From contig OZ287080.1 in assembly GCA_965645245.1 (NCBI GenBank), forward strand, positions 310,001-374,000: a stretch of 64,000 nucleotides of DNA. Reading direction: 5' to 3'. The notes beneath the pieces were generated by a model. The model searched no databases, had not been told where the DNA came from, and saw only the letters and a list, made by a program, of their open reading frames with translations. Position numbers and translations under genes: made by a program. The stretch comes from Massalongia carnosa. Its lineage: Eukaryota. How positions within the stretch are numbered: position 1 is the stretch's first letter; each line of letters opens with the position of its first letter. Below are positions 4,247 through 59,060 of this stretch, piece after piece.

Positions 4247-4382
4247 GACTTGGGAGCGCCGCCGACTGGGTGGGCGGATAGTACAGGCAGACATTGATGC
4301 CAGGGGACGGCATCAATGGGGGTCTGTGGGTGTGTGATAGGGTGAATAGGGACAAGGGCAGGTGCTGAGGGGAGGGGGGGAT

Positions 4383-4634: not shown

Positions 4635-4649
4635 CCCACGACTACCCCT

Positions 4650-4900: not shown

Positions 4901-4977
4901 GGTTATCTTTTCTATAGAACATTATTATTTATAATAGTAGCATAGCTACGCATAGAGCAATACATACAGCTTACATA

Positions 4978-5152
4978 TGTTACAGCTGTACTCAGTACTG
5001 CGGGCGCAATACATAGCGCCAAGGAGGTACGGTGACGTACCGGGTACGGGGTACCTACATGTAGTGTAATAAGCGGTGGTTGCTCCTGGGAGAACTACCA
5101 TAGTAGCCTTTTGGCTCAGTAGCCTAGGTGCCTTATTACCACCATTGTTACA
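4978..5152. repeat. Solo LTR (175 bp)
   Basis: TGTTAC...GTTACA termini flanked by the 5-bp direct repeat ACATA (4973-4977, 5153-5157). Confidence 0.7.
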
Positions 5153-5713
5153 ACATAAAGCATCTGAAATCGCGAGACACGAGATATACAATGATTATTA
5201 TTCTATTTATCTATTATATTAGATTGTTTGTTTTTATTTTTTATTTGTTTTAATCTTATGCATTTCTGTTATAGTTCAACTAGGATGTAATTGGCTATCA
5301 ACTAAGAAGTTATGAACCTGAAAATATCAAAGATGCAGAAAAGAAACAAGCAAAGGAAGTCCCCTTTAGGAGTCTATATAGATAATTGCTTGCCTCGACG
5401 CATCTGTTTGTCTACATCCTTCGGAAGTGTTCCGTGTGACCAAACAGTGTCTTTTACCTTTGATTCTTTCGTCCATCTATTTGGTTCGGAAGTGTTCTTC
5501 CGAAGTGTCCCTTTCATGCCTTTGTTGCCTCTACGGTTTGTCCCTATTCGCTTTGTGATAATAATCGGGAATAAGGTTTAGCGCCGCGGAGCTTTCGGCC
5601 CCTATGACCGCTTAATCTTGGATTAAGTGACGAGAGTGGTTAGCTTGTCGGCAGAAGCCGTATTCTCGTTAGTTCAATGAACCAGCCAGTGGTCGAATCG
5701 TGACATATGTTAT

Positions 5714-5875
5714 TACGCCGCGGAATGGGTTGGGTTTTGCCACAGTTGGGTAACCCAAGTTACTAATATTAGTATACTTTTAAGGGTTTAATTCTATGTA
5801 TAGTATACTAGTATACTAAATATAGTTGTTTGGGTTGGGTTTTCAAGGTCAGAACCCAACCCATTCCGCAGCGTA
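5714..5875. mobile_element. hAT-type MITE (162 bp)
   Basis: TIRs TACGCCGCGGAATGGGTTGGGTT / AACCCAACCCATTCCGCAGCGTA, with an 8-bp TSD TATGTTAT (5706-5713, 5876-5883). Confidence 0.9.
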
Positions 5876-5910
5876 TATGTTATCCAATCTGAAAGATCTC
5901 TGGAATTGGT

Positions 5911-6633
5911 CTAGACGCGTCTGAGCCTACGAGTTTCTTTCGTGATCACACTGCATTCATCATTCCAAAAGGGTTTGGCGTACTTGCTGGGTCTAGCCCA
6001 AGGTACGGCGATTTCTATGACTTCTTGAAGGAATTTTTGAATTGACACGGTGTAGGCGTCGATTTCGGCGGGGGATCGGGGGGTTCTCGGGGGGGGCGCC
6101 CTCTTTTCAGCTTCCCTCAATTTTTCCATGTCGGTCAGTTTCCATGCCCTACGTTCTCTGGTCGTTTGGGCCTCACTGTTCAGCGTGATTCGGGTGGAGA
6201 TCGTGACGTGATCGGATAATTGATTGAGTTCCGGCCTCGACATGCAGTGTTCTAGTCTCTCTGTTAATTCATCTGACATGAATACTAGATCTATCGTACT
6301 GAACGTCTGTCTAGCCTCCCACGTGACAGTGCCTTTTGGAAGTGTTAGTGCTAGGTTGTGTTCATCAGTTAAGTGCAGTAATTGCTCTGATTCCGCATGT
6401 TCAGTAGATCTTGTCGAGTGATTCCACAGTGGGTGATGTAGATTGAAATCGCCCAATAGGATATGTTTTTTTCTGCAATTTATTGACGTCTGAGTGTCGC
6501 TAGCGTGGACGGGCTGTCTATGGAGGAATAGGAAGTGGGGGAGGGAGGGATTATACACATTTTGAACATGAATCGCGTCCGATGTGTCTACAATTGTCGT
6601 TCGAATTTTTAGAGTGCAAATTTCGGCCGAGGG
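5911..6633 (-). pseudogene. LINE ORF2 fragment (APE endonuclease)
   Basis: NVYNPS, GDFNLHHPLW, STIDL and SDH motifs match the endonuclease at 12615. Truncated at both ends. Confidence 0.88.
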
Positions 6634-6924
6634 CTAAGATTGATTAAATAGAGCTGGCACCTCCTACGTAGAGTCTCTATCCTAGTTTTCGTTCATCCTA
6701 TTGATGAATTTCTACGATTGGGTTAGACGAAGTCCCTCTCGCCCAGGTCAATCCCAGTTTACTCCTTAAGCATATACCAAGGGCGAGCCTAGCCGTAGCA
6801 CAACCACCGGCGAGCCGGGGGTTCCCGTTACGAGCGGGATAAACATTCCCTGCTCTATATACATCGACATGCGCATATTGTCCTCTCGGGCTACGGTCTC
6901 CGTACGGTGGCCGCCATTGCATAC

Positions 6925-7130
6925 TGTCAGGGTCCTGGCCTGACCCGACATGCTCTGGTGGTCACGGGACAGCGTGACTCGCCTAAGCAGTAGCGCGCGT
7001 CGCTTGACTGGCTAGCGCACCACGTTAGATTATGTTTAGGAGTTCAGCGATGATTATTCTTTTCTATCCTTCCTTGTAGTTAAATTCTAGTTCATAGCTA
7101 CTGAATAATATCAGGGCAAGCTGCCTGACA
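6925..7130 (+). repeat. 5' LTR of Gypsy B (206 bp)
   Basis: Perfect 7-bp inverted termini TGTCAGG...CCTGACA, located 197 bp upstream of gag. Confidence 0.8.
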
Positions 7131-7326
7131 TTATATAACTACCTTTAAAGCTTATTAGAACTCTTCCAGTCTTCTAGAACTTTCAGTACATTTAGAAAGG
7201 GACAACGACCTGCTTCTTTAGCTTTCCAGAACGACCACTCGTGAGAATCCGAGCTGGTCCTCACTCCAGAACCTTTAGAACTTCCAGAATCGAAAGACAG
7301 AGCTCTTTCACCTCCAGAACACAGTC

Positions 7327-8931
7327 ATGAGTTCGAAAACTCCCCTGACTGCTCGAAAGGCCGGCGCTCCTCGCGAAGACGCTCAAGCAGGCCCTGCCTT
7401 TAACACTCGCGCCCGTTCCATGTCCCGTCATTCGGCTCGCTCTGATAGTATGCCAGGGACGTTCGAAGACTCTGAGCTTACACCCGGTGAGCAGATGGGA
7501 GACGAGACAGAATGCACACTAGAAAAGACCCCGAAGGCTGGGTCAGGAAATGAGAAGAAAGGGGCTCGCGAGATTGACATCTCGGAACATCCATACTACG
7601 AACGAGAAACTCGGAAACATCCCGCACGATACAAAATTCGCAACCTAGAAGACTTCCGAAATGCCGTCCTAGACGAGAACGAAGGTACTCGTTGGTATGA
7701 GTTTTTGTCTAGAGTAATTCCCTATGATAAAACACTGTACGAAAAAAGCTTCGCGCTTCATGAGAAGCTTATCAAGACCAAGAAGCATTTGGAACAATAT
7801 AAGCAGATTAATGACCGTTTCGCTGACGAAAAGGATGAAGACGAACGCCAAATCCTTCTTGCTCAGGAAGAGCTTTCGCATAAAGAAATTGAGTTGGAAG
7901 AAGCCCTCCAGGCCCAACGGGACTTACAGAAAGAGAAGGAGAAACTTGAGCGACGGCTAGCAGCTCCCGACTCCTCTCGTGGCCAACGGGAGGACACTGC
8001 TACAACCCAGAGCACCACTATAAATTCCCAGAACTGGCGTCCACGTGGCATTCACCCCAGCAAGCCTCTGAAAGGCGAAGACGCTGAGGAGTATAGTCCT
8101 TGGCAATACTCAGTCCGAAACAAGCTTAAGACCGATTCTCCGCTTTACGCCAACGAGGACGAAAAGGTCAGTTATGCTCTATCGCAAATGGAAGCGCCTA
8201 TCTTTGGGGCTATGCACTCCTAGGTCGTCGACATGGGCGACTCTCTCACTATTGACGCTCTGTTCGACGAGATCGAACATTATATGGGCATACATCTCCA
8301 GAGTCGAGATGCCAAGAAAGAACTCATCACCATCACAATGAAAAGTGGTGAAAGTGTAAGCTAGTACTATCATCGAATTTTTAAGCTTTGGCAAAAGGCC
8401 AAAACCCCCATCGACGAGAGGATAGAGAAGTTTCTTGTAACATTGAAGCCAAGCATCTCTAATTCACTGATGGGTTCAGTTTTCATCAACTTTCGTCTCT
8501 TGCTCGACGAAGCTAGGAGAATCGAAGATCGACGCAAGGATGTCGCTCACTACTTTCCTCGGCCAGAGAAGTCTAGTCCGTCAAAGAACTCTGGTCGCGA
8601 AGGCAAGTCCTCGAGTGGACAAACCTCCATTTCCGATTATCGTCAATCGAGTGCAAAAGAGAAGAAGTCGGGTGATCATCCAAACTCCAAGTTCAGCGCC
8701 ACGATAGTCAAACCCGCTGGTTGGATAGGGGTTTGGTACGATCCTGACCCCAACCCCAAAAAGTTGGAGAAGGAAGAGCGAGATACTTTGTTGCGTCAGG
8801 GACGCTGTTGGGCATGTCGGGGGTCAGGTCATCGAGGAAACGACTCGATCTGCCCTCAATTTAAAGAAAAAAAGCTTAACACTACAAGAATTGTTGAGAT
8901 AGACTCTGACTCCGAGTCGGGAAAAGCTTAG
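7327..8931 (+). pseudogene. Gypsy B gag with two in-frame stops
   Basis: One reading frame with TAG at 8221-8223 and 8362-8364. Contains a coiled-coil segment and a zinc knuckle CWACRGSGHRGNDSIC. Confidence 0.85.
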
Positions 8932-8958
8932 TCCTTGATCAAAATCGCGATCAAGGAC
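8919..8958 (+). promoter_or_regulatory. -1 programmed ribosomal frameshift signal (gag-pol)
   Basis: G GGA AAA heptamer (8919-8925), a 5-nt spacer, then a perfect 10-bp stem GTCCTTGATC/GATCAAGGAC. The -1 frame is open into pol. Confidence 0.8.
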
Positions 8959-10636
8959 ATCTTAAGAAAGATGTCATTTGTGAAATTGGTAGCGCTGAAA
9001 TGAAGACAGTAAGGGTCTCTAGTTGTGCTGTTCTCGATACTGAAAAGAAGATCGAGGGCAAGCATCTAGTATTTAAAACTAGCATAGCTGGAATTAAAAC
9101 TCGTTTACTTGTTGATAATGGAAGTGAGGCTGAGCTCATTGATGAATCCTTCGCGCGTGTAAATAAACTGAACACCTCTAAATTAGAAACGGGGGTTAAA
9201 CTGACCCTTGGAAACGGAGATGTTGCACAACTTCTCACGAGGACCGCCCTAGTCGACGTCAAAATTGGGGATCATCAAGAACAAGTCCTTTGCTATGTAG
9301 CAAAACTGGACGTGTACGCGATTATTCTAGGAGATGGGTGGCTACAAACTCACAACCCTAGCATTGACTGGAAAGAGCGAATTATGAAGTTTAACTCTGC
9401 CGATTGCTTGGAAATGGGATGCCTTTCGCGTGGAATAACCTGCACCGAATTTGCTGTTGGAAGTAGGGCAAAGAATAGGATCGGAACAAAAGACGATATC
9501 GAAGTCCTTCCGGTCAATGCGAAACATTTCTTTCGGATGGTTAGGAAGAAAGATCACGAGGGATACTTATGGACTCCCCGAGAACATAAGACCTTCTGTG
9601 CCACAACCACTGGGGCCGTCACCTCAAAGGATTATGACAAGTTTATGAAAGGCAAACCCGAGTACTCCCGCGAAGAATTGTTGAAGAAAGTCCCCTCAGA
9701 GTATCATAGCATGATAGAAGTCTTTTTGAAGCATAAAGCAGACGAACTACCGGAACATCGTAAGGAGGATCACGAGATCAACCTCATGGACGGAAAAGAA
9801 CCCCCTTATGTCAGGAACTATAAACCTATGTCAGAACAGGAGTTGGAAGCTGTCAAGAAGTATATTGACGAACATATGGGAAAGGGATTCATTCGTCCTA
9901 GTTCGTCGACAGCAGCTGCTCCAGTCCTTCTAGTTCGAAAACCAGGTGGTGGACTGAGATTTTGTGTGGACTATCGAGCCTTGAATGCCATCACAGTAAA
10001 GAATCGATATCCTATTCCCCTAATTAACGAGACGCTCGGAAAACTCTCGCAGGCAAAACACTTCACGAAACTAGACGTTATTACGGCATTCAATCTTCTT
10101 CGAGTAAAAGAAGGACATGAATGGCTTACCGCTTTTAACACAAGATATGGCCAGTTCGAATATCTGGTCATGCCTTTCGGTTTATGCAATGCTCCAGGGA
10201 CTTTTCAGAGTTATATGTAATTCTGTTCGGGAATATTTAGACGTCTTTTGTACTGCTTATCTGGATGACGTCTTGATCTACAGTGATAATGAGGAAGATC
10301 ATTCAGATCACGTGTTGAAGGTTCTTAAACGCTTGGGGGAACGAGGACTCCAAGTTGACATTGACAAATGTGAATTCTCGGTGACTAAAGTAAAATACCT
10401 CGGACTTATAGTCACCACTGAAGGAATACAAATGGATTCCGAGAAGATTGAAGCGGTTTTGAAATGGGAAACTCCGGAGTCCGTGAAGGACGTGCAAGCT
10501 TTTCTAGGCTTTGCAAACTTCTATCGACGATTCATATCAAAGTTTTCTCAGCGTACAAGGTCTCTGACGGAATTAACAAAAGGGGAACAAATAACGACCA
10601 AGTCGGGCAAGAAGAGAACCGATATAACGTGTTCAT

Positions 10637-10755
10637 TGTTAAATAAACAGTTGGCGGCATAATGTTGAAATTACTACGGAGGTGACTGCTTATAGCAGTC
10701 ATGGCAGCCTGCAGGGCTGAGCTAGAACTAATGGGGCTAAGCGAGTATTCCAACA
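10637..10755 (-). repeat. Solo LTR (119 bp) of the TRIM family at 40494-41383
   Basis: TGTTA...CAACA termini with TSD TTCAT (10632-10636, 10756-10760). It differs from the 41265-41383 LTR at one position that I could see. Confidence 0.93.
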
Positions 10756-10934
10756 TTCATCTGGACCGAACAAACAAAAACTTTCGCACTTTTTAGCTAG
10801 CACTAGAAATTGCATTCGTTACCCATACAAGCCCTCAATAGTCATTGTGATCACGTAGAATTGCTCCCCGACTCTGTAGCTATCTTGGCCGAAAGTTATA
10901 TCGTCCCTTCTGTTGTGGCTGCATTGTGGCAACC

Positions 10935-12618
10935 ATGGGGAGCTCTTTTGTCGTGCCCAACGACGCCCCCCCCGATTCACTACACGAGCACCGTCACTTC
11001 CTCACCAATGTGCTTAATAACTTAACTAACTGCGAGGCATATCAGAAGCAAAGACCTATGAAGGTTCAGTCTTACACCCCGTTACTCTCCAGTATGCTCA
11101 GCCTACTGGAGAAGATGCGCAACCAGCCCACAATGGATCAGCTCCAAGCTACCATCAACCAAATAAAGAACACTACAGAGCAAACGCTCACTAAAGTCAC
11201 CTATGTCGAGCGCAAGCAAGACACCGCCCGCACAACACCCACTACCTCCTCCGCGGCCACTACTGGCTACAAGAGGACGATAACCTGGGCAGAACGGGCA
11301 GCCTTTGCTGCCTCCAACGATCTCTACGCTTTCGGGGACGTCCATCCCCGCTCCTATACTAGAAGAGAAAGCTCGTGAAATCGTCGTCAAACTGAACAAC
11401 GAAGCCATAGCAAAGGATCTGGCCAAACTGGCCTCCTCAGCGCTCAAAGACAGAATCAACGCGGCAATATCTAACGCGTTAAAGGATCATAACAACACGA
11501 GAATTCCGACCAATCAAAACGCTCCCGCCCCCCCTATTTCCAATGGCACAGCCAAGGCAGCAGCCGTAGCAATAGCAGCAAGGGTCCTCCCTAGCGGAGA
11601 CCTACAGGTAATAGTCAACAACGCCTCAGACACGGAACGCCTAAGAAAAGACACCCGATGGGCCATCAGGCTATCGAGCAAAGCTACTATAATACAGCCA
11701 AGCTTCGGCTTAATCGCGCACTTTGTACCGGCTAATCTAAGCATGACAGACATCAAGGAACGCCTCTGGGAGGAAAATAAGTCACATATGCCCGTTAGGA
11801 ATAGGGTAACAGGAGTAGAATGGTTGTCCCGCACGAGTAAGGCAGGAGCCACAGCTAGATCCATGGTGGTATACTTTGAGAACGAATTAGACTGCAATGC
11901 CATTTTGGCCTCGCAGCTATATTTGGATGGGAGATCTTTCGCGGTGGAAAGACATGTTCCGGAGGCCAGGCTTAGGCAATGTTTCCGGTGCGGTAAGTAT
12001 GGTCACACGAGCCATGCTTGCCGACAGAAGCATCAAACATGCTTCAAATGTTCCGAAAGTCACCACATGACCGATTGCAAATCGGTCACTCTCAAATGCA
12101 ATGCGTGTGGCAAGGAAGGCCACGGGGCAAGCGCAGAGTCTTGCCCGGAGCGAAAGAAGGAAAAGGCCCGAATGAAGCGGGCCAAAGAAGAAGCTCTCCC
12201 CTTCTGGCCTCTCAAGGCCTCCTCAAGGGAGACCCTAAATGGTCAGGAACAAGAACGGAGCAGTCCGCCGGCATCGACCACGCCGACGGTCACGACAAGC
12301 AGTGAGGTGACCCCAGCCTCAACCCAGGTGGAACAGGGCCCTCGAACGGGCTCTGTACGAGAGAAAGATTGGCAAACCGTGCCAACTCTGCGCAAGGGGA
12401 AGAAGCGGGCGCATGGGGAGGTAGAGCCCCTGGCAGACAACCCCAGTTCTACCAACAGGAGCATGGCACAAGCAGCTTCTAAGAAGGGAAAGAAGAAACC
12501 CTCCTCGAAGGCTGTGGAGGTCTTGAGCGATAAGGAGAACGACGATAGTTCTTCAATGACCACCAGATCGGCAACCCGTCGCTTGCAGCCCAGTACTCAG
12601 ACAGAAGAGGAACTATGA
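10935..12618 (+). pseudogene. LINE ORF1 (gag-like, three zinc knuckles), one frameshift near 11320
   Basis: CFRCGKYGHTSHAC, CFKCSESHHMTDC and CNACGKEGH...C. Its stop overlaps the ORF2 start (ATGA, 12615-12618). Confidence 0.85.
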
Positions 12619-15600
12619 GTGAATACACCCACTATCTGTCCATACTTCAGTACAACTGCAACAAATCTAAGAACACTGTCATGGCGGACTTCCTTCGCAG
12701 GGAGGAAAGCATGAAATACGGCATCCTGGCCATCCAGGAACCCTGGGCGGGGAACCCCTATCAACACACCACGCACAATCCGGTCAAAAATGTTTTCCAC
12801 CTTCTCTATCCCCCCGAAACAGGAGAACAAGAGCTCCCTCCGAGAGTATGCATGTTCGTCAACAAAGACATAGCAAGCGCCTCTTGGAAGGTAACCTTCC
12901 ACTCTCCCGATCTGATGACTTTGCACTTGGAATTTCCTGGCGAAACCCAGCGAGTCATCAATATCCATAACATCTACAATCCCTCCCCCTCTCAGGGAAA
13001 CTACAGCACCTTGCCAGACCTAAGCAAGGCGCTAGAGGTGGAGGGAGAACACATAGTGGTAGGGGACTTCAATCTTCACCATCCCCTATGGACTGGCGAA
13101 GACTACCATCATCAACATCCGGAGGCAGACCAACTACTGGAGATTCTCGATCATAGCGAGCTAGAACTTCTGCTCCCCCCTGGCACCATAACATACGATC
13201 ATAGATCAGCACAGAGCACGATAGACTTAACGTTCGCAACCCCCGCAGTGGCTTCAGCCGTACTCATGTGCGATGTGAGAAGAGAGTTGGATTGTGACTC
13301 AGATCACTACCCCATTGGCACAGCATTCGATACCACCACAGTTAAGAGGGCCATAAGGTCCTCTCGCATGTGGTCTAAGACTGATAGGAAAAAGCTACTA
13401 GACACGATGACAGACAAGCTCCCGGCACCTAGGAGCGTGAGCACAGTTCAAGAACTCGACAACTTGGCCCATGAGTTAGTTGAAGCTATCCAGCAAGCAG
13501 TGGAGACAGCAGTCCCACTTTCTAGAGGGTGCAATCATTCAAAACCTGGCTTTACCCCGGAATGCAAAGAGGCAGTCACCCTATGCAGACGTCTCAGGCG
13601 CAAGCATAAGGAAACGCGCTCTCTGGAAGACTGGGAAGCCTACCGAGAGGCGAGAAACAGCAAAAACAAAATCGTTCAAAAAGCTCTTAAGACAACACAT
13701 AGGGACAGGGTAGAGGAGGCCACCAGCACTCCAGATGGTCTCTGGAAGCTTGCGAAATGGGCTAAGAACAGGTCGACCCCATTCCAAGCCTTCACCCCAA
13801 CACTAATGAAAAGCGATGGCTCCAAAGTGACGGAGGCCTCGGGCAAGGCTGAACTGCTTCGCAGACAGTTTTTTCCTATCCCGGACGCGACCAATCTTGA
13901 AGACATCGCCGATTATCACTATCCAGAGCCAAATCCAATTTGCTCCCATCTCAGCTCGGGAAATAACTAAAGCCATCACAAAGGCAGCACCACTCTCGGC
14001 CCCAGGCCCCGACGGACTGCCTAATAGAATCCTCAGAGATGTGTTACCGCTCATCATGCCCACACTTGTAGCTCTGTATAACGCCAGCTGGGAACTGGGT
14101 CATCACCCCAATGCTTTCAGAGAATCCACCACGGTGGTTCTCAGAAAACCAGCTAAGGCCGACTACAGTTTGCCGAATTCATACAGACCCATAGCCTTGC
14201 TCAACACTTTAGGTAAGACTATGGAGAAGATCATTGCAACCAGAATCAATCACGCGGTGGAGACCGAGAGCCTACTCCCCAGACTCCATATAGGCGGCAG
14301 GCGAGCTAGATCACCCGAACACGCCCTCCATCTGCTTCTAGAGGCCATCCACGCAGCCTGGCTTAACAACGAAGTGGCCACAGTGCTCATGCTGGACATC
14401 TCGGGTGCTTACGATAACGTATCCCACGAAAGACTACTGCACAACCTACGGAAGAGAAGAATAGGCGGCAACATAGCTAAATGGATCGAAAGCTTCCTTC
14501 AGGAAAGGAAAACGACCATCGCCATGCCCGACTACACCTCGCAACCATTCACCACGAACTTTGGAGTCCCTCAGGGATCCCCTATATCTCCTATTCTTTA
14601 TCTCTTCTACAACGCCGACCTCATGGAAGAGGAAGGGCCCAAAAAGATGAACCTGGGCTATGTCGATGACATATCCAAACTAATTATTGGAACTTCAGCA
14701 GAACAGAACTGTAGAAATCTCGAAGCCTCGTTCATGACGAGAGAGCAGAAATGGGCGGACACACACGTCTCCAAATTTGCCCCCGCCAAATTCCAGCTCT
14801 TGCACTTTATCAAAGGACCCTCAGAGACGGATTTGAACCCCCCAGAGAGAGCTATCTCCCTAGCGGGCAAAACCATCAAGCCACAGCATACCGCCACCTA
14901 CCTGGGCGCCACATTCGACGACAAGCTCAAATGGCACGCCCATTTAAGGAAACTGGAAGCCAAAACCTCAAAGAGACTGGGGGCCCTAGGCAGCCTTGCG
15001 GGCTCCACATGGGGCACCAGTCTTGCGAGCCTTCGAAGGATCTATCAAGCCACCATACTACCGCAACTCACTTTTGGATGCTCTGCATGGTATGTTCCCG
15101 AGGGTGGATACGGGACTATCACGCAAGCAACCGCCGTGCTCAAAGCCGTCAGATCTATTCAGCGACGGGCGGCACTGATCATTTCAGGGGCATTTAGAAC
15201 AACCTCGGGCCCGGCCTTGGATATGGAGCTTCACCTCCTGCCTGGCCGGCAACGCATGGAGCAGGCAGTGAACGAGTCACTACTGCGCATACGTTCAAGC
15301 CCCCTTTACGCCATAATACGTGAGATCCGCGCCTGGACAAGCCAAGCGGACTCCCACTATCGATACTGGAGCCCTCTAGCTAAGCTAGAGTCCCGCTTAA
15401 TGACTTCGGGGAAATGCCCTCAACCCTGGCCGTTAGAGGTCATTCTTCCATTCATAGTGGAACCATGGTGGTCTCCCCCCGAAACGCACATTGCTTCCAG
15501 TAAAGAGGAAGCAATCAAAGAGCATGACAAGATGACATCAGAGCCGAACCAAATAGTCATATACACGGATGGGAGTGATAACCCCTTCGGAGTTGGTGCG

Positions 15601-16470
15601 GCAGCAGTCATCCCCAGCGACAACACACGGGTAGGAACCCGCCTCGGAACGAACAAAGAAGCCACAGTTTACCTCGCGGAACTAGTGGGCATCGACCTGG
15701 GACTGGCGGCGGCTATTGCACGATGGCAAGGGGAGATAATAACGGTTTTTGCAGATAATCAATCAGCCATCAAATCAGTAGCCGACCCCGGAACTCAATC
15801 AGGTCAGTTCATACTACGCGAGATCATTGGAAAAGTCCACGCATGCCGGGAGATGCAGGCCAGAGTCAGACTCTGCTGGATACCTGGGCATATGGGAGTA
15901 GAAGGCAACGAGATAGCAGACCAAGCAGCAAAAGAAGCATCAGGCTGGTTAGAACATGGCCAGAGTCCCTCCATCACCCACTTCGACTTCCTCGGACACA
16001 CAGTGAAGTCGGCGATAAAACGCAACATGAGGACAATGATCAGCAAAGAATGGGCTGGGGATTGGGAGGCAGAAAAACGCGGACAGATGACGAAAAAGCT
16101 CCTCCCCCAGCCCACTAACAAGGTCTTGCAGCTCTACCAGGGGCTTCACAAGTCAATGAGTTCCACCCTGGTGCAGATGAGAACAGGTAAGATTGGTCTA
16201 CGCAAGTATCTCTCAGATATAGGCCGCACCGAAACGGGCGAATGCCCATGCGGCTTCGGTTATCAAACAGTTCACCATGTGCTTCTGGAGTGCGTCAGGC
16301 ACCATCGATTGCGCATGGAGACTATCTGGATAGGCCGGAAGGTGTTCGATCTCCAAGAAATTTTTAGCACCCCCAGACTGGCCAAGGCAGCATCCAAATT
16401 CATGCTATCCTCACGTCTCCTCGGCCAATTTGGAGACGTGAGGATAGCAACCGAACAATCCACGAGTTAA
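12615..16470 (+). pseudogene. LINE ORF2 (APE endonuclease, RT, RNase H, CCHC), one frameshift near 13940
   Basis: Motifs GDFNLHH, SDH, APGPDG, GVPQGSP, YVDD, YTDGS, WIPGHMGVEGNEIAD and CPCG...HVLLEC. Confidence 0.93.
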
Positions 16471-16913: not shown

Positions 16914-18706
16914 ATGTCTCGACAATCTGGACATTCTGGCGGTCGACCGAAAAATGCATTGGTAGATGAGAATTTCGTTGATGTCATCATTGAAGGCATG
17001 AAATACCCTCAGCATCGTTGTACGCATTGCGGATATCAGTCTGCCAAAGTTGCTACCAGGGGTCAGCAGCATTTGCAGACATGCAATGCCTTTCAAGAAG
17101 TGCAAGAAAGAAGACAGCAAGAGACGTCTTCTAGGAGCAGCAAATCTTTGATTCAATTGCCCATCACCCCTTTGATTCGTCCCTTAAATCAAGCCCAAGT
17201 TGCGCATGCTCATCGCGCTGCTGCAATGTCCGTCTTTATGACCAATCTTCCGTTTAACCACTTCGAAAATCCCTATGTGATTGCTCATCATCAAGCACTG
17301 CATCCTGGATATAAACCTCCACATCATAAGCTCGTTGGCGGGAAATTATTGGACGAGTAAATCAGCAGTTAGATGCCTGCAGTTATCTCAACTTCTTTAC
17401 CGACGAAACGGCCAACATTAAGAAGGAACGGGTTATTAATCTATGTTGTCATGTCCCTTCATCAGCTACCTCTCGAGGGGGGGCTTTCATTTAAAAGCAA
17501 TGGCCGGCATCGCTGAGACGATGACTGCAGCTGTTCAAGCTGAGTGGATGATAAAAGGCTGTAGAGAAGCGACCAATAATCAGCTCTGGAGAGTCACTTG
17601 TATAGGAACAGATACTTGCTCTATTATGAAGGCCATGTGGTCTGAAATTCGAAAGTTTCCTGAGATAAGACACGTCTTTTTCGTTCCTTGCGACAGTCAC
17701 GGTTTACAGCTTCTTTTGGGAGACATTTTGAAGCTTCCTTTTTTTGCAGACATCATGCAAAAAGCTCAATCGATAGTGATAGCTTTTCGTGGATCGAATA
17801 AAGAATTGGCCATTCTATGGAATTTTCAGATGAAGGTAAGTAGGAATGAAATTTCAATGCGGCATCAAAACGTCATTGCTAATTTATAACTTTCAAAGGC
17901 ATACAATCAACGTCAATCACTGATTCTCAACGTTTTGACCAGATGGGGTACGACTGTAGGCCTTTTGAACTCGGTGCTAAAAAGCAAGCAGGCAATTTTG
18001 GATTATTTTCAGCAAAATGCTCCGGGCATTGATCAGGGCAGAAGTCATCCTTTAGGAACATTCGTCAACGACTTCTCGTTTTGGAAAAAGCTGGCCATCG
18101 TACAGAAAATTCTTGATCCCATACATAAAGCACAATAAATGTCCGAGGCCGAGGGGCATAAACTGTACGCGGTGACTGCCAATTGGAACAGGCTTCGATC
18201 TCACCTATATACAATGGCCAAAGAGGATGAAGATTCTGAGATGGATTTGCATCACATTGCAGAGATAGTTTGGGAAGATCGATATCTCAGTCAAATAACT
18301 GAACTTCATGTGGTAGCAGCTCTGTTGGTTCCTCAGAATCATAACATTCAGGTGATTGGAGTATCCACGTCGCAGGCATTTTTCTCTATCATGCATAGAT
18401 TCTTTGCTGAATATCTGAACGTTGAAGAAGCAAAGTCGGCAATGAAGCAATGGCTTTCTTTTCGAAATCAAGAAGACGGTTTTTATCCTGCCTCCGAATG
18501 CTGGACATATCAAACGGATTCGGAGCTGTTTTGGAACTTTTCCAGAAGCTTTGCTTTTGATCTCAGCAACATAGCTAGAAAGGTAATAATGCTGCCTGCT
18601 AATTCGGTGCTGGCAGAAAGAAATTGGTCGGTCATGAATTTGATCATGACCAAAAGTCGGAACTCTCTACATTCCATCAATGTCGATAAACTCATGTTTA
18701 TTTACA
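16914..18706 (+). pseudogene. hAT transposase pseudogene (BED finger, DUF659-like core, dimerisation domain)
   Basis: CTHC...HLQTC, TDET, GTDT, CDSHGLQL, TRWGT and AERNWSVMNLI...RNSL. Has stops and frameshifts, a probable intron at about 17836-17898, and is cut off after KLMFIY. Confidence 0.85.
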
Positions 18707-19058
18707 CTAGTAGAGTAGGAGATACATAAAATTGTACGCAAATTGCTAACAAAATAAAGTATCTTTTCCCCACTTTCTATCTTCCCGCTTCTTCCGCCCG
18801 TAGCTAATCCCTGTGTCTGTCAGTTGGGCCAACTGACACGTATTAAACACTTCCCGATCGGGTTAGTCAATAAACATGTTTAATACATAAGCCTGGGCTT
18901 GACATATTCAGCCTTATGTGGATATCATTCAGCCCATTCAGCCGCGCAACAATAACAGCTTGACTGATGCTTTCTGTACCACTCATTTCCAAAGCCAGCC
19001 TCTGCACATTTCCTACCAGGCTAGTTGTAAATGTAGAAGAAAGCTAGGACCTTCTATC

Positions 19059-22000
19059 ATGCCAGATAAAGATTTATGCCTATTATCTCTTGATGGCGGT
19101 GGAGTGCGAGGGCTATCGTCACTCGCAATCCTCAAGCGACTGATGGAGATCATCAATCCGGATGCGCCGCCGAAGCCATGCGAGTATTTCGACATGATCG
19201 GAGGGACAAGTACCGGTGGATTGATTGCTATCATGCTAGGTCGTCTTGAGATGAATACCGATGAATGTATCGATGCCTATGTCGCATTGTTCGATCAAGT
19301 GTTTAAAAAAAAGCCGCATCGTGTCACAATAAACGGACACGTGCAGGGGAGATTCGACACGGAAGAGCTGGAACGGTCGATTCGAGAAATCGTAAAGCGG
19401 AAGGAGAAGGCAGGGGAAAATGCTCTCCTCAAAGGATCAGAGAATCAGCAATGCAAGGTGTTAGTGCTTCGAAAGTTGCATTTACACGTATAATTCAAGT
19501 GATACTAATGAAAGCTAGATTTGTATGCGCTCTGAATAAAGAGACTGCCGACACAGTCCTTTTCACATCGTATCCTTCTCGAGGATCATCAGATATGTAC
19601 CATAAAACACGAATTTGGGAGGCAGCTCGAGCCACATCTGCCGCATCATCCTTCTTTGCTCCAGTTAAAATTGGCCAGTTTGAAGAAGAATTTGTCGATG
19701 GGGCTGTGGGGGCTAACAATCCTGTCGCACATCTTTGGAACGAGGCCAAAAGTGTGTGGTCAGATGAAGCGCTTGAGGGAAACATTAAATGCCTGATATC
19801 TATCGGTACCGGTGTTCCATCCTTGGATTCTTATGGCTCAAGCCTCTTCGAGATTGCAAAAACGTTGAAAGACATTGCAACAGAGACAGAAAAAACAGCG
19901 GAGTCTTTTCATCGAGCGCATTCAGATCTCGATGATGGGAATCGCTACTTTCGTTTCAATGTTTCTCATGGGCTTGAGAATATTGGACTCGAAGATGCAG
20001 CACAGAAGAACAAGATCATGGCCACCACAACCCGCTATGTAGCTTTGGAAAGCGTGATGAAACAAATGAAGCTGTGTGGAAATAATTTTTCAACACGAGA
20101 ATGTGCGTCAATGTTGGCTTGATAATTCTTGAGTTACTAAATCCTTGAATAGACACTGGTTCATATAAAGTGCCATTCAGTTTGAAAGGCTTACCCCGTG
20201 TACCCAAATTCATAGCTCGTGATCAGGAGATGAATGACCTTAAGGAAAACCTTTTTCCCAAGCCAACTCGTGAGACTCGCCGGAAGGTGTTCGTTTTGCA
20301 CGGACTTGGCGGCTCCGGCAAGACTCAGCTAGCAATCGAGTTCGCTCAAAGATCACAGAAGATTTTTAGTTCTATTTTTTGGCTAAACGGCGATAGCAAG
20401 GAAAGTGTACGTCAAAGTCTTGCACAGATTGCTCAGCAATTGCCCAAAGATCAGATACCGGATTCATGTAGAAAATTCTCTAAAATATCCCCTGAAGAGC
20501 TAGATGAAATTATTCGCAATATTCTTATTTGGTTCAATCAACATGAAAACAATCAATGGCTTCTCATTTTCGATAATGTCGATCGTGATAATTCTCCTGA
20601 GGTAAATGATCCTCAATCATATGATGTGGAAGATTTTTTCCCGGGAGCCGATCATGGTTCTATTTTAATCACAAGCCGATTACGACAGCTTCGACAACAC
20701 GGGCAGGACCGGCAACTTGGAAGGATGAGCGATCTACAAGGAGCAGAAGTATTACGAAGCAGGATAGGACGATCAGTTGAAGGTAATGAAATTCAAGCAA
20801 CAGTCTTAATCCAATTTACTAAGCATTATATAGGCCTTGATAGGATCGTCGAGAAAGTGGGTGGTCTCCCACTTGCACTTGCTCATGCAGGCTCCTATAT
20901 CCACGGAACGACTACAAGTGTGAACGACTATATTCGATACTATGAAGAGACTTGGGAGAAGCTTCACAACAACAAAACGACCCGATTAAAAGATTATCCT
21001 CGTAGCATTGTATCTACGTACACCATTTCCTATGAATATGTGAAACGCAATGACGCGAGCGCTGCAAAATTGCTTAATCTGTTTGCATATCTCGATCATT
21101 CAGATTTATGGTATTCTTTATTCGCACCAGTACTTGACGAGAGCATTATCTCAAAAGAGACATTACCTATCTGGTTTTCATGTAGCATGAAGACGGAATT
21201 TGATTTTACACAGAAGATTCAAATACTGCTGGATTACTCCTTGATAGAAACACGATATGAGAACTCATCTTATGCGATTCATCCAATTATACATGACTGG
21301 TGTTTTCACTTGAATCTAACCTCTAACGACGAGATAGCTTCTTTAGCAGTTTCTGTAATCGGTTCCGCATGTCATTCCACTGGTAGTTCAGCAAACTGGC
21401 TGCATCGAAAACGACTGGCTGGTCATTGTAGTTATGTTCACTTCTGGATTGGAAAAAAACCTCAAAATCTCGAAAGGAATATGAGATGGGAACAGGTATT
21501 ATATTCTTCGTATCATGCTATTGGCTATTTTTCAACAGACCAAGGCAAGCTGAACGAGGCCGAAGATATGTATCTGCGGGCATTGACAGGAAAGGAAAAG
21601 GCCTGGGGTCCTGATCACACATCAACGCTCGCCACAGTCAACAATCTAGGGCTTTTGTATGCAGATCAAGGCAAGATGAACGAGGCCGAAGAGATGTATC
21701 TGCGGGCATTGACAGGATACGAAAAGGCCTGGGGTCCTGATCACACATCAACGCTCGACACAGTCAACAATCTAGGAATTTTGTATAAAAATCAAGGCAA
21801 GATGAACGAGGCCGAAGAGATGTATCTGCGGGCATTGACAGGAAAGGAAAAGGCCTGGGGTCCTGATCACACATCAACGCTCGCCACAGTCAACAATCTA
21901 GGGCTTTTGTATGCAGATCAAGGCAAGATGAACGAGGCCGAAGAGATGTATCTGCGGGCATTGACAGGAAAGGAAAAGGCCTGGGGTCCTGATCACACAT

Positions 22001-25000
22001 CAACGCTCGACACAGTCAACAATCTAGGAAATTTGTATAAAAATCAAGGCAAGATGAACGAGGCCGAAGAGATGTATCTGCGGGCATTGACAGGATACGA
22101 AAAGGCCTGGGGTCCTGATCACACATCAACGCTCAACACAGTCAACAATCTAGGAAATTTGTATAAAAATCAAGGCAAGATGAACGAGGCCGAAGAGATG
22201 TATCTGCGGGCATTGACAGGAAAGGAAAAGGCCTGGGGTCCTGATCACACATCAACGCTCGACACAGTCAACAATCTAGGAAGTCTGTATGCAGATCAAG
22301 GCAAGATGAACGAGGCCGAAGAGATGTATCTGCGGGCATTGACAGGAAAGGAAAAGGCCTGGGGTCCTGATCACACATCAACGCTCGACACAGTCAACAA
22401 TCTAGGGCTTTTGTATGCAGATCAAGGCAAGATGAACGAGGCCGAAGAGATGTATCTGCGGGCATTGACAGGAAAGGAAAAGGCCTGGGGTCCTGATCAC
22501 ACATCAACGCTCGACACAGTCAACAATCTAGGAAGTCTGTATGCAGATCAAGGCAAGATGAACGAGGCCGAAGAGATGTATCTGCGGGCATTGACAGGAT
22601 ACGAAAAGGCCTGGGGTCCTGATCACACATCAACGCTCAACACAGTCAACAATCTAGGAATTTTGTATAAAAATCAAGGCAAGATGAACGAGGCCGAAGA
22701 GATGTATCATCGGGCATTGACAGGAAAGGAAAAGGCCTGGGGTCCTGATCACACATCAACGCTCGACACAGTCAACAATCTAGGAATTTTGTATAAAAAT
22801 CAAGGCAAGATGAACGAGGCCGAAGAGATGTATCTGCGGGCATTGACAGGAAAGGAAAAGGCCTGGGGTCCTGATCACACATCAACGCTCGACACAGTCA
22901 ACAATCTAGGAAGTCTGTATGCAGATCAAGGCAAGATGAACGAGGCCGAAGAGATGTATCTGCGGGCATTGACAGGATACGAAAAGGCCTGGGGTCCTGA
23001 TCACACATCAACGCTCGACACAGTCAACAATCTAGGAAGTCTGTATGCAGATCAAGGCAAGATGAACGAGGCCGAAGAGATGTATCATCGGGCATTGACA
23101 GGAAAGGAAAAGGCCTGGGGTCCTGATCACACATCAACGCTCGACACAGTCAACAATCTAGGAAGTCTGTATGCAGATCAAGGCAAGATGAACGAGGCCG
23201 AAGAGATGTATCTGCGGGCATTGACAGGATACGAAAAGGCCTGGGGTCCTGATCACACATCAACGCTCGCCACAGTCAACAATCTAGGGCTTTTGTATGC
23301 AGATCAAGGCAAGATGAACGAGGCCGAAGAGATGTATCTGCGGGCATTGACAGGAAAGGAAAAGGCCTGGGGTCCTGATCACACATCAACGCTCGACACA
23401 GTCAACAATCTAGGAAGTCTGTATGCAGATCAAGGCAAGATGAACGAGGCCGAAGAGATGTATCTGCGGGCATTGACAGGAAAGGAAAAGGCCTGGGGTC
23501 CTGATCACACATCAACGCTCGCCACAGTCAACAATCTAGGGCTTTTGTATGCAGATCAAGGCAAGATGAACGAGGCCGAAGAGATGTATCTGCGGGCATT
23601 GACAGGAAAGGAAAAGGCCTGGGGTCCTGATCACACATCAACGCTCGACACAGTCAACAATCTAGGAAGTCTGTATGCAGATCAAGGCAAGATGAACGAG
23701 GCCGAAGAGATGTATCTGCGGGCATTGACAGGATACGAAAAGGCCTGGGGTCCTGATCACACATCAACGCTCAACACAGTCAACAATCTAGGAATTTTGT
23801 ATAAAAATCAAGGCAAGATGAACGAGGCCGAAGAGATGTATCTGCGGGCATTGACAGGAAAGGAAATGGCCTGGGGTCCTGATCACACATCAACGCTCGA
23901 CACAGTCAACAATCTAGGAAGTCTGTATGCAGATCAAGGCAAGATGAACGAGGCCGAAGAGATGTATCTGCGGGCATTGACAGGAAAGGAAAAGGCCTGG
24001 GGTCCTGATCACACATCAACGCTCGCCACAGTCAACAATCTAGGGCTTTTGTATGCAGATCAAGGCAAGATGAACGAGGCCGAAGAGATGTATCTGCGGG
24101 CATTGACAGGAAAGGAAAAGGCCTGGGGTCCTGATCACACATCAACGCTCGCCACAGTCAACAATCTAGGGCTTTTGTATGCAGATCAAGGCAAGATGAA
24201 CGAGGCCGAAGAGATGTATCTGCGGGCATTGACAGGATACGAAAAGGCCTGGGGTCCTGATCACACATCAACGCTCGCCACAGTCAACAATCTAGGAAGT
24301 CTGTATGCAGATCAAGGCAAGATGAACGAGGCCGAAGAGATGTATCATCGGGCATTGACAGGAAAGGAAAAGGCCTGGGGTCCTGATCACACATCAACGC
24401 TCGACACAGTCAACAATCTAGGAATTTTGTATAAAAATCAAGGCAAGATGAACGAGGCCGAAGAGATGTATCTGCGGGCATTGACAGGAAAGGAAAAGGC
24501 CTGGGGTCCTGATCACACATCAACGCTCGACACAGTCAACAATCTAGGAAGTCTGTATGCAGATCAAGGCAAGATGAACGAGGCCGAAGAGATGTATCTG
24601 CGGGCATTGACAGGAAAGGAAAAGGCCTGGGGTCCTGATCACACATCAACGCTCGCCACAGTCAACAATCTAGGGCTTTTGTATGCAGATCAAGGCAAGA
24701 TGAACGAGGCCGAAGAGATGTATCTGCGGGCATTGACAGGAAAGGAAAAGGCCTGGGGTCCTGATCACACATCAACGCTCGACACAGTCAACAATCTAGG
24801 AAGTCTGTATGCAGATCAAGGCAAGATGAACGAGGCCGAAGAGATGTATCTGCGGGCATTGACAGGATACGAAAAGGCCTGGGGTCCTGATCACACATCA
24901 ACGCTCAACACAGTCAACAATCTAGGAAGTCTGTATGCAGATCAAGGCAGGATGAGCGAGGCCGAAGAGATGTATCTACGGGGCTCAAGCGGCTTACCTG

Positions 25001-25089
25001 TGCGAGGTATGACAATTCTAGGCAGGACAAGGCTGGATGACATATTCAAACGTCAAAATGAAATCAGATCAATACCGTCTGAAAGCTAG
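19059..25089 (+). CDS. Fungal NLR: patatin-like phospholipase - NB-ARC - TPR (PLP-1/PaPlp1-type architecture), about 1956 aa
   Basis: Exons 19059-19459, 19519-20102, 20153-20782 and 20834-25089 have GT..AG introns with CTAA-type branch sites and join in frame (5871 nt). Patatin motifs DGGGVRG, GTSTG and DGA; P-loop GLGGSGKT; Walker B LLIFDNVD; GLPLAL; TPR array. Confidence 0.93.
21538..24981 (+). repeat. Coding tandem array: 27 full 126-bp (42-aa) TPR units plus a partial 28th
   Basis: Unit starts at 21538 and 24940 differ by 3402 = 27 x 126. Units are near-identical. Confidence 0.97.
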
Positions 25090-26054
25090 TTGAATCTTGC
25101 TGGCAATGGTGGAATTGAAATTCTATCGTTCGGTTGAGAGGGAACTTGAAGGTAAGGGGCGTAGGGGCGCAGGGGCGCAAGGCGTACGGGGGAAGTTTCA
25201 AATTTCTTGGCATCTTCTCTCGCTGTGCTAAATCGGATCATATAGGAATTGAAAGAGAGTAGGGATTTAAAATGGAGTAGTGATTGAAAAGAGATAGGGA
25301 CTAAAAAGCCCTAATCATTTTAAAGCCTCGGGCATTTTTTCTGGCTGAAGATATCATGTTTCACAGGAGTTTGATATCGTTTTTTAATATTGCTACTATT
25401 GTACATAACGGTCTAGATAGTGGCCCCAAAGATAAAACGATTATCTCTGACTTCATGTGTGTTGCGCCGAGATGCTCTCCATCTATAACGCGGTACAGTA
25501 CATGTATGATTTAGACAGCCATGTTAGATGAATGTTAGATGGAAGCAGCTATCCTTCGTAAGAATACAGTGATTGATAGGTAAGGTCAGCATACGCATTA
25601 TTGCCCCCGAAGTGAGCGACCCAAGTCTGACCCGTCTATGGCCGATGGTCTGGTCCGTGATGATAAGTCTTTAAACAGAAGGGACATTGTACGTATACTC
25701 TTAGGCTATTCCATTCGGTCGCTGTTGCAAATGGTATGGTAGCTATGATTTTGAAGACGGGATGTTGCGAGGGAGTAGAGGAGCCGAAATTAGGAGCTAG
25801 AGCGATACGAGAGTTGATGCTGATGATGACGCAGCAGTCATAGGCTACAAGGAGCGAAGAACCCATAAGAACCCGAGATGGTCATGAGACTTACCATTCG
25901 ACGTATCGAAAACAGCAGAAGGGTATGGAATTAGTCAAGCTCGATGCCGAACCGAAGGTTTTCTATGGGGAGGCAACTTATTATGGCCGCTCGTAAGGTG
26001 GTGACCTCAAGAGGAATTTATGTAACCAGTCTGCACGCAAAGGCCGAATGACAG

Positions 26055-28265
26055 TCAAGTGGGTGTCTTGTGAACCAAATCCGCATGGTTCTGCAAGTGC
26101 ATTGTGCTTGTCAAAAAATCTTGACACCTTGGATGAAGGCATGCGATCGGATGACCGTCTTGGTGATGAGGAAGGTGTTTTACAATGGAAGTGCTTTTTC
26201 AGATCGTAGCGGCTGTGGAAAGACTTCAGACGTGTCTCGGTGGGTAGCGCTACACAGCCGAGGCAAAAGATACATTGAGTGGGTTCGCATTCAATCGGGA
26301 TGGAGTCTGAAAGAGAGGCCGGATCGAGGACAGATGGTGGTGTCAGATGCCGTTCCTTGATGACCGACGCGGAAAGTTTTGAACGACGTGGACGCTTGCC
26401 TTCCTGCAAGCGACAAAGGGCTGTCAAAGCATTGATCGCTTCCACCCGCCGTTTGCACTCTTCCTCTGGGGATGACGTCGCGAAGGTGAGGAGGGTATCG
26501 ATGACCCGGACACGCTCCTCGAAGACGTAATCCTCTGCCTTCGCCGTCTCCAGTTCTTCCGACGGCAGTCCTTTCAGCTTTCGTTGAATGTCGATCACCG
26601 GCTGCTCCCTCTTATACCTCGCTTTGGCCTCTTGTAAAAGAGCCTCCTCTGCCGCCGTTTTATGTTGCGATGAGCTTGATACGCCTTTTGGTACTTATTC
26701 TACACTGATGTTCCCTTCATGCTCGCGATTGGTCCATGATTGTCTTTGATAAACTGGAACATTTTCTTTTGCCTCCGGCGAAGGAGTCTCACCTCTGCGT
26801 GACGATCGACCTGGGCTTTATGGGCGTCATTGAGCTTCCGAGGCCGACGTCGATCAATCGTACGACTCATTTCACTGGCGAGTCGCATCAACGCAGTTTA
26901 CGGCTTCAAACCACGATAGGCGGCCCCGGTATCACTTGTGATATACCTCGAGAGATAGCTTTTTAAAAACACGGTGGAGTTGTGATGTTGCAAAATTAGA
27001 TTCCGTTGCGATTCGCTGATGAAGCCTGTGCAAGGGTCAGCGAAAAGCTCAAAAGAAGATTGACAGAGGTCGTATTACACACTTGCTGTTGTCGAGAGCT
27101 TCGCTATTGCCACGTCGAAAGATGTATGAACCGGTGGGAAGCTTCATGCTGGTGACGCTTTCAAGGGTTATCATCCGTGAGCGAAGAGTACTGTCAGGCA
27201 GAGCTTTGTCATCCGAAATTCGAACCCCGATCACGGTGAATTTGGATCGGCGGAAGAGGAGAACGTGTAGCATCGTTTCCTTAAGGGGAAACGGCAGCTG
27301 TTTCTGTCCCGGGGGGATCCGGAGACGGAATAACTGTTCGGCAGAAATCAATTCGGGAGCGGCGAAGGCCTGATCGATAAAGATCAAAGTGAGTAGGTTC
27401 AGACGAGGACAAGCAGCAGGCATGGTTCGTCAGGCTCGTCAGGAATCCTGAACTTGTTTCTATGATACTTGTCAGTCGTTCAGCGAAACTGTCCGTCTCG
27501 ACGAAGAAAGCACAAAAGGGCAACACGAACGTTTCTTTATCGCCTAGATAGCCCTTCGTATTCTTGAATGCGATTTCAATCAACCGTCGAGGAAGCTCCC
27601 CTCCTTCGAGATCCGGAAGCAAGGTGATCTTAACATCTTTGTAACACTACACCCAAGAGGGCAGTAGGACGGTTGTCTGTGATTCCGGCTAGCTGCATGA
27701 TCAAGGCTAGTTGTACACGGTGCGCTCGTGATCAATGACGATCTCGACGGAGAGAAACAATGTCTTCAGGAGCCCGAACTCGTCCTCGGCCCGCATGATG
27801 AGCTTCTTCTTCTTCTTCTCAGTCCTTAACCCATGCTTTAGAGCGAGCCGTTGTCTCGCCTAGTACTGGTTAATCAATAGAGGCGTAGAATGGGGCTCTC
27901 GTACCCCGTGCATCTGGCTTTTGATAAGCGGGTCGATCTCTAGATAGCCAGTCTCTTTCTTTTGCACTAGGCAAAAAACATTCCAGTATGTTTGCAGGGT
28001 ACTAGCCGCACTCAGCCGATCTTTTCGAATGGAGAGTAGCCAGTCGAAGAAGACGTAGAGGATGTTGATAGAGATCTCCTTGAGAGTCATGACGGGGTTC
28101 TTCCCAGTGAATTCGCAATATCTGTCAGCCTCGATCATATTTCGCCAGTCCACGATAGTAGTAGTAGCATCTCCTTACCAATACCAAAGGTTCTTAATCC
28201 AGCTCTGTAGATCCTCGCTGCTTTCCTTGTAAACTCGTTCAGGGAAATTAGAGTCGACGAGCGTG
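26055..28265 (-). pseudogene. DUF3435-type tyrosine recombinase (Starship 'captain'-like), decayed
   Basis: Minus-strand fragments in order: FFDWLL...STLQTYW, QLAGITDNRP, KNTKGYLG, DQAFAAP...LFRLRIP, YIFRRGNSEALD, QRNLILQH...FLKSYLSR, MSRTIDRRRP, and CIFCLG...LKKHF C-terminal zinc finger. Intron at 28122-28178. Several frameshifts and stops; no clear ATG. Confidence 0.85.
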
Positions 28266-51650: not shown

Positions 51651-51690
51651 TTGATACGACGGATCCAACAAGCACAATCAAATATCAAAA

Positions 51691-59059: not shown

Positions 59060-59060
59060 G

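Follow-up and report, generated by a model that had tools for sequence, protein, structure and literature searches.

We have analysed a window of 64,000 nucleotides from Massalongia carnosa (assembly GCA_965645245.1, contig OZ287080.1, positions 310,001 to 374,000 of the forward strand; all coordinates below count from the first letter of this window). The window holds a predicted gene for a NOD-like receptor (NLR) with patatin, NB-ARC and tetratricopeptide repeat (TPR) domains, whose C-terminal part is an array of 27 nearly identical TPR units. We consider it likely that this array is the ligand-sensing arm of an intact receptor of a lichen-associated ascomycete, belonging to a class of fungal NLRs already known for the high internal conservation (HIC) of their repeats. 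The units differed recurrently at six codons only, the variants were reshuffled between units, and five of the six positions corresponded to peptide-contact positions of kinesin light chain.

The array belongs to an intact patatin/NB-ARC/TPR receptor gene

The NLR gene extends over 19059-25089 and is interrupted by two introns. Its spliced coding sequence of 5,922 nt translates into 1,973 residues with no internal stop. The features of the gene are as follows.

19059..19459, + strand: exon 1, with the start codon and the N-terminal patatin-like phospholipase part (GGGVRG oxyanion and GTSTG nucleophile motifs); Pfam Patatin, E 2.2e-15
19460..19518, + strand: intron 1, 59 nt, GT..AG, read from the sequence; the protein is collinear with the related protein P0002 across the junction
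19519..20102, + strand: exon 2, with the C-terminal patatin part and the DGA catalytic-aspartate motif (residue 194 of the spliced protein); Pfam Patatin, E 2.5e-08
20103..20152, + strand: intron 2, 50 nt, GT..AG, read from the sequence; junction collinear with P0002
20153..25089, + strand: exon 3, with NB-ARC, linker, TPR array, short tail and stop, an open frame of 1,646 codons
20221..21033, + strand: NB-ARC, with Walker A GLGGSGKT, Walker B LLIFDNVD and GLPLAL; Pfam E 3.5e-08, residues 25-295 of the exon 3 frame
21034..21537, + strand: linker from NB-ARC to the array, ending in a degenerate half-unit (cryptic helix A); recognised by protein similarity to relatives
21538..24939, + strand: 27 complete TPR units of TPR_10/TPR_12 type; Pfam TPR_10, E 3.7e-277, 28 stretches
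23303..23794, + strand: 492-nt exact internal duplication, first copy (units 15-18)
24437..24928, + strand: 492-nt exact internal duplication, second copy (units 24-27)
24940..24982, + strand: stub of a 28th unit, its first 43 nt, comprising the start of helix B, with an abrupt end of the repeat; consensus match
24983..25089, + strand: non-repeat C-terminal tail and stop codon

The start of the protein matched the N-terminus of P0002, and the two proteins were collinear across both introns, with 68% identity over 1,168 columns. The NB-ARC match scored 33.5 bits against a Pfam cut-off of 23.5. With a central NB-ARC domain, an N-terminal effector domain (patatin) and C-terminal repeats (TPR), the protein has the arrangement that defines a fungal NLR, and patatin is listed among the effector domains of these receptors (PMC4986451). 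Based on the intact frame, the patatin and NB-ARC motifs and the TPR_10 matches, the gene is thus predicted to encode an intact patatin/NB-ARC/TPR NLR.

The three unit-lengths that precede the array matched the unit consensus at only 26-30 of 126 nt, and the degenerate half-unit at the end of the linker had no nucleotide similarity to the units. At the other end the repeat broke off 43 nt into a unit, and the protein ended 35 residues later. The divergent capping TPR unit that closes the arrays of the related proteins P0001 and P0002 was absent. We have considered a short intron in the C-terminal tail that would restore such a capping unit and rejected it, as the sole GT..AG candidate measured about 15 nt, which is too short.

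The units vary at a handful of codons

Tandem Repeats Finder returned one array at 21536-24982, with a period of 126, 27.4 copies, 95% matches and 0% indels. Read in frame from 21538, it resolved into 27 complete units of 126 nt, or 42 residues, followed by the stub. The units had a mean pairwise nucleotide identity of 95.7% (range 89.7-100%), and 18 of the 27 were distinct. Three 336-residue slices of the array were 93% identical to one another, a value above the threshold that Dyrka et al. 2014 (PMC4986451) give for HIC repeats, namely 85% identity or more between repeats across 100 residues or more.

Over the 27 units, variation was found in 17 of the 126 nucleotide columns and in 11 of the 42 codons. 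Variable codons were therefore clustered, since 14.9 would be expected for 17 randomly placed columns (P = 0.003). Recurrent amino acid variation involved unit codons 1 (D/N), 13 (L/H, CTG/CAT), 19 (K/Y, AAG/TAC), 32 (A/D/N, GCC/GAC/AAC), 39 (L/I/N/S) and 42 (A/K). Codons 38, 39, 40 and 42, together with codon 1 of the following unit, formed a 14-nt block that occurred in only four haplotypes (L-AD, S-AD, I-KN and N-KN). Recurrent silent variation was restricted to codons 38 (GGG/GGA) and 40 (TTG/CTG), which flank codon 39, and none was seen outside this block. The remaining differences were singletons: K21M in unit 19 and, all three in edge unit 1, M5L, E10D and a silent GAC (GAC/GAT) at codon 1, the last of which itself sits inside the block.

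An earlier reading of the letters alone (the original prediction) had described 27 units and written them as a code string of their variants. The count was borne out by Tandem Repeats Finder and by the in-frame reading, and the string, compared by eye, agreed with the unit alignment in 27 of 27 units. It had also confined all variation to L/H, K/Y, A/D/N and a linked block, which held for the recurrent sites and left the four singletons unlisted. Its statement that silent differences occur only beside the variable block was correct for the recurrent ones, at codons 38 and 40.

Unit variants are reassorted and a run of units is duplicated

Reassortment of the variable sites between units, as originally predicted, was evident from the pairwise combinations of positions 19, 32 and the block around 39, most of which were present (8/8 for 19 with 39, 5/6 for 19 with 32 and 9/12 for 32 with 39). 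Some linkage was retained: A32 was accompanied by L39 in seven of eight units, and N32 was found with Y19 only (4/4). Counted by eye, 12 of the 24 three-site combinations (K/Y x A/D/N x L/S/I/N) occurred. The units are truly shuffled, yet the code is not fully combinatorial. The retained alleles are 2 nt apart in each case (CTG/CAT, AAG/TAC, GCA/AAA, CTT/AGT), which makes recurrent mutation unlikely and exchange between units the simpler reading.

The recurrence of units 15-18 as units 24-27, noticed beforehand, proved to be an exact identity over 492 nt (3.9 units; coordinates listed above). A match as long as this appeared in only 2 of 1,000 shuffles of the unit order, so that a recent multi-unit duplication is likely. 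Together, these observations point to recent recombination within the array.

Recombination and per-codon dN/dS had both been proposed as checks. The former gave the reassortment and the exact duplication; the latter was uninformative in its pooled form, with a pN/pS of 1.17 (1.26 without unit 1; Nei-Gojobori, pooled over units) that rests on a very small number of silent sites, each of them linked to codon 39. We have also considered whether the coupling of positions 42 and 1 is a general structural rule. This was rejected: over 1,431 units of relatives, the K-D combination was common and the two positions were only modestly associated (odds ratio 0.65).

Repeat-induced point mutation (RIP) was likewise rejected as the source of the unit variation, as changes relative to the majority base were mostly transversions (12, versus 6 transitions) and the RIP indices were in the unaffected range. 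No RIP signature was detected in the array, the 5' part of the NLR gene, three transposons or the region of a neighbouring DUF3435 gene (TpA/ApT 0.37-0.83; (CpA+TpG)/(ApC+GpT) 1.14-1.66). As a 3.4-kb stretch of 96% identical repeats and several copies of transposons are present and yet no signature was seen, this fungus may have little or no RIP activity.

Variable positions coincide with peptide contacts of kinesin light chain

We have modelled units 2-9 with AlphaFold2 from an alignment of 20 sequences, with a predicted local distance difference test (pLDDT) of 91.1 and a predicted template modelling score (pTM) of 0.78. All modelled units were helix-turn-helix, with residues 5-23 forming helix B and residues 28-43 forming helix A. 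The nearest solved structures were the TPR domains of kinesin light chains KLC1 and KLC2, both by sequence (phmmer, E 2.1e-42) and by fold (Foldseek, 6fuz_A, TM 0.80 on the target). The sequence search also matched 4y6c, a "42-residue repeat" protein of Podospora.

The eLife paper PMC6214655 names 15 KLC1 residues that line the peptide site or bond the peptide. These were transferred to the unit by an ungapped alignment with one numbering offset, under which 15 of 15 residue types agreed; N469, beyond the aligned register, was excluded. The resulting correspondence, by unit position, was:

position 1: K309, N351
position 5: Y313
position 19: R327
position 32: K340
position 35: N259, N301, N343
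position 36: N302, N344, N386
position 39: V305, L347
position 40: L348
position 42: R266

Five of the six recurrent variable positions fell within these nine contact-equivalent positions (P = 8.1e-4). By this alignment, the KLC1 asparagine pairs by which the backbone of the peptide is held correspond to the invariant N35 and N36. On a helical wheel, the four variable sites of helix A lay within 100 degrees, or within 120 degrees when N35 and N36 were included.

The same positions vary in related arrays

The nearest relatives by the NB-ARC part came from lichen-forming fungi, with Vezdaea aestivalis (56-60% identity) followed by Usnochroma and Pycnora; the searched protein collection had no entry for the window NLR itself. 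We have examined 120 relatives, 18 of which had conserved arrays (six or more units, internal identity 80% or higher). In these 18 arrays the positions of highest entropy were 39, 32, 19, 42 and 1, which are the main variable sites of the window array (rank-sum P = 1.1e-4).

For array length, the set comprised 223 relatives, obtained by merging two overlapping lists, the 120 that ranked highest by NB-ARC similarity and the 120 that ranked highest by array score. Their longest uninterrupted runs were of 17 units, then 16, then four of 14, against 27 in the window, a comparison to be taken with caution because most public proteins derive from short-read assemblies, which collapse such arrays.

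P0001 and P0003, the closest NB-ARC relatives (both from Vezdaea), carried the same kind of TPR array behind an N-terminal domain that is not patatin. They illustrate the swapping of effector domains known for fungal NLRs. A metagenome scan with the NB-ARC part returned one weak locus, with 46% identity over 38 residues.

A recombining sensor is the favoured explanation

The explanation that we favour is as follows. Unequal crossing-over or gene conversion between units keeps the 126-nt units nearly identical while reshuffling them, with amino acid differences remaining at just five to six positions in each unit. Positions 32, 39 and 42, together with position 1 of the next unit, lie next to the invariant N35/N36 on a single face of helix A, and position 19 is close to the end of helix B. 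By analogy with kinesin light chain, the variable positions would contact a peptide whose backbone is held by the asparagine pair. What the groove binds could then depend on which unit variants the array contains and in which order, and new specificities could arise by recombination. As in other members of the family, ligand binding would be expected to release NB-ARC oligomerisation, after which the patatin domain would execute a membrane-directed cell-death or defence response. The original prediction of a receptor with recombining units is supported, by indirect evidence, in the patatin/NB-ARC/TPR architecture, the reassortment of sites and the exact 3.9-unit duplication. Its second part, that the variable residues line the ligand-binding groove, is supported in the same indirect way by five of the six positions, which are KLC1-contact equivalents and the top five in the 18 related arrays.

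Several points weigh against this explanation. The sixth position, the L/H site 13 with the variant in 3 of 27 units, was not contact-equivalent in the KLC1 mapping and ranked 22nd of 42 in the variability of the relatives. The helical-arc test is weak when taken alone, as 106 of 1,820 choices of sites gave an equal or tighter arc. The placement on the concave face is indirect evidence, coming from homology to KLC1 and not from measured geometry. Positive selection is not demonstrated, given that the pooled pN/pS depends on silent sites that hitch-hike with codon 39, and the fact that positions 42 and 1 carry either AD or KN without exception is probably due to their closeness to each other rather than to function. 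Finally, this allele has no capping unit of the kind that ends related arrays and might be impaired for that reason.

Some of these points would also be compatible with a young array that expanded neutrally. A few founder unit types that already differed at these sites would have been amplified and shuffled by unequal crossing-over, so that the pattern would be inherited from ancestral units and neither maintained nor used as a specificity code in this gene; the allele, with 27 units and no cap, might even be the non-functional product of a runaway expansion. Most of the array consists of three unit types, the variants are partially linked (A32-L39 in 7/8, N32-Y19 in 4/4) with only 12 of the 24 three-site combinations in use, and several units are duplicated exactly. 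Moreover, the array exceeds in length that of any of the 223 relatives, it has no capping unit and its pN/pS is not clearly above 1. We nevertheless hold this scenario to be unlikely. The frame of 1,973 residues is intact and all catalytic and nucleotide-binding motifs are kept. In 18 independent arrays from other species, variability is likewise highest at these positions (1, 19, 32, 39 and 42), which coincide with ligand-contact positions, so that some cause by selection has to be assumed, at least for the history of the family.

An error of assembly, by which a shorter array was mis-resolved by the long-read assembler, would affect the copy number or the order of the units. Such arrays are reported to be unreliable in short-read assemblies (PMC12222747), and we have looked at Logan contigs of four public runs (X1-X4), which covered 20200-22797 in pieces of 78-363 nt; none spanned the array. 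The letters of the 3' junction recurred in all four runs as loose contig ends, so a local misassembly does not account for the end of the array, and the 5' junction was bridged by an X2 contig of 149 nt; the number 27 is not thereby confirmed. Contig depth rose over the units, a sum over paralogues and hence not a copy number. An artefact appears very improbable given the 0% indels, the frame that stays open through all 27 units and the 18 distinct units in a non-periodic order, which would not be expected from collapse or stutter. There is even less to recommend a TPR solenoid that acts as a structural scaffold or autoinhibitory arm with no ligand-specific code, its variable sites being simply the least constrained surface residues. 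No ligand is known and surface positions of helical repeats do tolerate change; still, other exposed positions are invariant, such as the charged helix B residues E7, E9 and E20 (and E10, except in edge unit 1), and the sites that do vary are peptide-contact equivalents flanking an invariant asparagine pair. The probability of such a scaffold is accordingly slight.

The favoured explanation, that of a ligand-sensing arm with recombining units, also admits a bolder version, which we regard as quite unlikely. Designed armadillo-repeat binders read an extended polypeptide unit by unit. The window array could be a natural modular peptide reader of this kind, in which 27 stacked units, probably forming a solenoid several superhelical turns long, would read a long extended polypeptide in the same way. 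Each unit may combine the backbone grip of N35/N36 with a variable "word" of five residues (32, 39, 42, 1 and 19), and recombination may rewrite the order of the words. A further part of this version is that the gene would be carried between lichen fungi as an auxiliary gene of a Starship-type element.

Genomic surroundings of the receptor gene

Transposon content was dense at window positions 204-16470 and 38660-56358, and remnants of mobile elements lay on both sides of the NLR gene.

25981..28174, - strand: DUF3435 tyrosine-recombinase remnant of Crypton or Starship-captain type; Pfam DUF3435 on three pieces (E 3.1e-15, 1.4e-27 and 1.8e-06) and a weak SAM-like integrase match
18139..18729, + strand: fragment of a hAT transposase, from its C-terminal dimerisation region, immediately upstream of the NLR gene; Pfam Dimer_Tnp_hAT, E 3.9e-07
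204-3347, 8910-10220 and 43773-47849: gypsy-type pol open reading frames (ORFs), the last open over 1,358 codons and including a chromodomain
5911-6633 and 12549-16470: ORFs of a long interspersed nuclear element (LINE) type, for endonuclease and for reverse transcriptase/RNase H
38660-39442: DDE_1 fragment
51655-56358: copia-type polyprotein ORF of 1,567 codons

The DUF3435 gene lies 0.9 kb downstream of the NLR gene, tail to tail with it. Its sequence falls into pieces spread over several frames and carries at least one in-frame stop, so that it is probably a remnant. Starship elements are reported to commonly carry genes for patatin-like phospholipases (PLP) and NLRs as auxiliaries (10.1101/2025.11.25.690456). 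Given the adjacent recombinase remnant, it is a possibility that the NLR is, or was, carried by a Starship-type element. The long open frames of some transposons suggest young, possibly active copies. Ordinary genes resume at the right end of the window, with an ORF for an APH-like phosphotransferase (59003-59758) and a cytochrome P450 (61799-63106, + strand; Pfam E 1.3e-43).

An NLR of PLP-1/HET-Z type was reportedly described in 2018 by Heller and colleagues as having a linked, polymorphic SNARE (sec-9) partner gene. No SNARE (sec-9-like) family was present among the Pfam matches of 20 ORFs across the window (19 of at least 200 residues and one of 196 residues, at 18139-18729) and of 16 ORFs of at least 70 residues in the 25.6-32.7 kb interval, a survey that would miss short or spliced genes.

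In the public runs, the NB-ARC part (20200-21537) was represented by at least two versions within one run, as in X4, where contigs showed 5 and 32 differences over the same 363 nt. An insertion variant of 4 nt after 20820 was found in three of the runs X1-X4. These NB-ARC versions may be alleles or close paralogues in related samples. One public run that shares part of the sequence is labelled as a lichen metagenome.

Comparison with known systems

The pattern described here, internally conserved repeats with hypervariable sites, was given in the original prediction as known from fungal NLRs, and it is indeed in print. Dyrka et al. 2014 (PMC4986451) report that about one fifth of fungal NLR TPR domains show high internal conservation, with most units of 42 residues. 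In their account, repeat number in Podospora is polymorphic, from 2 to more than 14 units in a table limited by polymerase chain reaction, and the selected and polymorphic TPR sites lie on the concave face of a model based on kinesin light chain 2. Long reads are stated to be required to assemble HIC arrays (Ament-Velasquez et al. 2025, PMC12222747). A later report by Ament-Velasquez et al. 2026 (PMC13449251) associates such arrays with transposons, shuffling and the exchange of repeats between genes, and notes that other domains of life show HIC-type patterns as well.

The closest counterparts are the HIC TPR NLRs of Podospora anserina (Pa_2_10340, PaPnt1 and Pa_7_3550). As described, they share with the window NLR the 42-residue units C-terminal to NB-ARC, the near identity of the units, the few hypervariable positions (reported on the concave face), the signs of shuffling and the transposon-rich surroundings. 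The window array differs in having 27 units, as opposed to 2 to more than 14, and in its lichen-associated ascomycete host. Repeat-number polymorphism and selection by codon models are documented for the Podospora genes. RIP is reported to contribute to variation in Podospora; the window array carries no RIP signature.

In its three-domain architecture the window NLR resembles receptors of the PLP-1/HET-Z (PaPLP1)/vic2 type, with which it was compared at that level (PMC13449251, PMC4986451); patatin/NB-ARC/TPR is given as the architecture of the het-z gene PaPLP1 (PMC13449251), and the window NLR has an intact patatin dyad and intact NB-ARC motifs. The HNWD genes of Podospora anserina (het-d, het-e, het-r), as presented in PMC12222747, have in common with it concerted evolution, a few hypervariable positions that set specificity and alleles made of repeat combinations. 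They differ in having closed WD40 propellers, usually of 11 repeats, with NACHT and HET domains, in place of an open TPR solenoid with NB-ARC and patatin. The TPR domain of kinesin light chain (PDB 6fuz, 3zfw and 3nf1; PMC6214655) provides the best sequence and fold matches, being of the same 42-residue type, its asparagine pairs matching N35/N36 and its contact positions matching the variable sites of the units; it is described as six divergent, cargo-carrying repeats, outside any NLR context and with neither internal conservation nor shuffling of units.

The window array is therefore an unusually long example of the described HIC NLR repeat pattern and not a new kind, and it leaves the present picture of receptor evolution unchanged. 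Relative to described HIC NLRs, what is new is the 27 units (at most 17 among the 223 relatives) and the lichen setting. The array provides the list of fungal immune-type receptors with a putative diversifying TPR sensor that is very clean and unusually long. Its origin lies in lichen-associated fungi, in which recognition of the partner and of non-self is central and has been little studied, and the correspondence of its variable sites with kinesin light chain contacts provides a concrete, testable map of the presumed binding groove.

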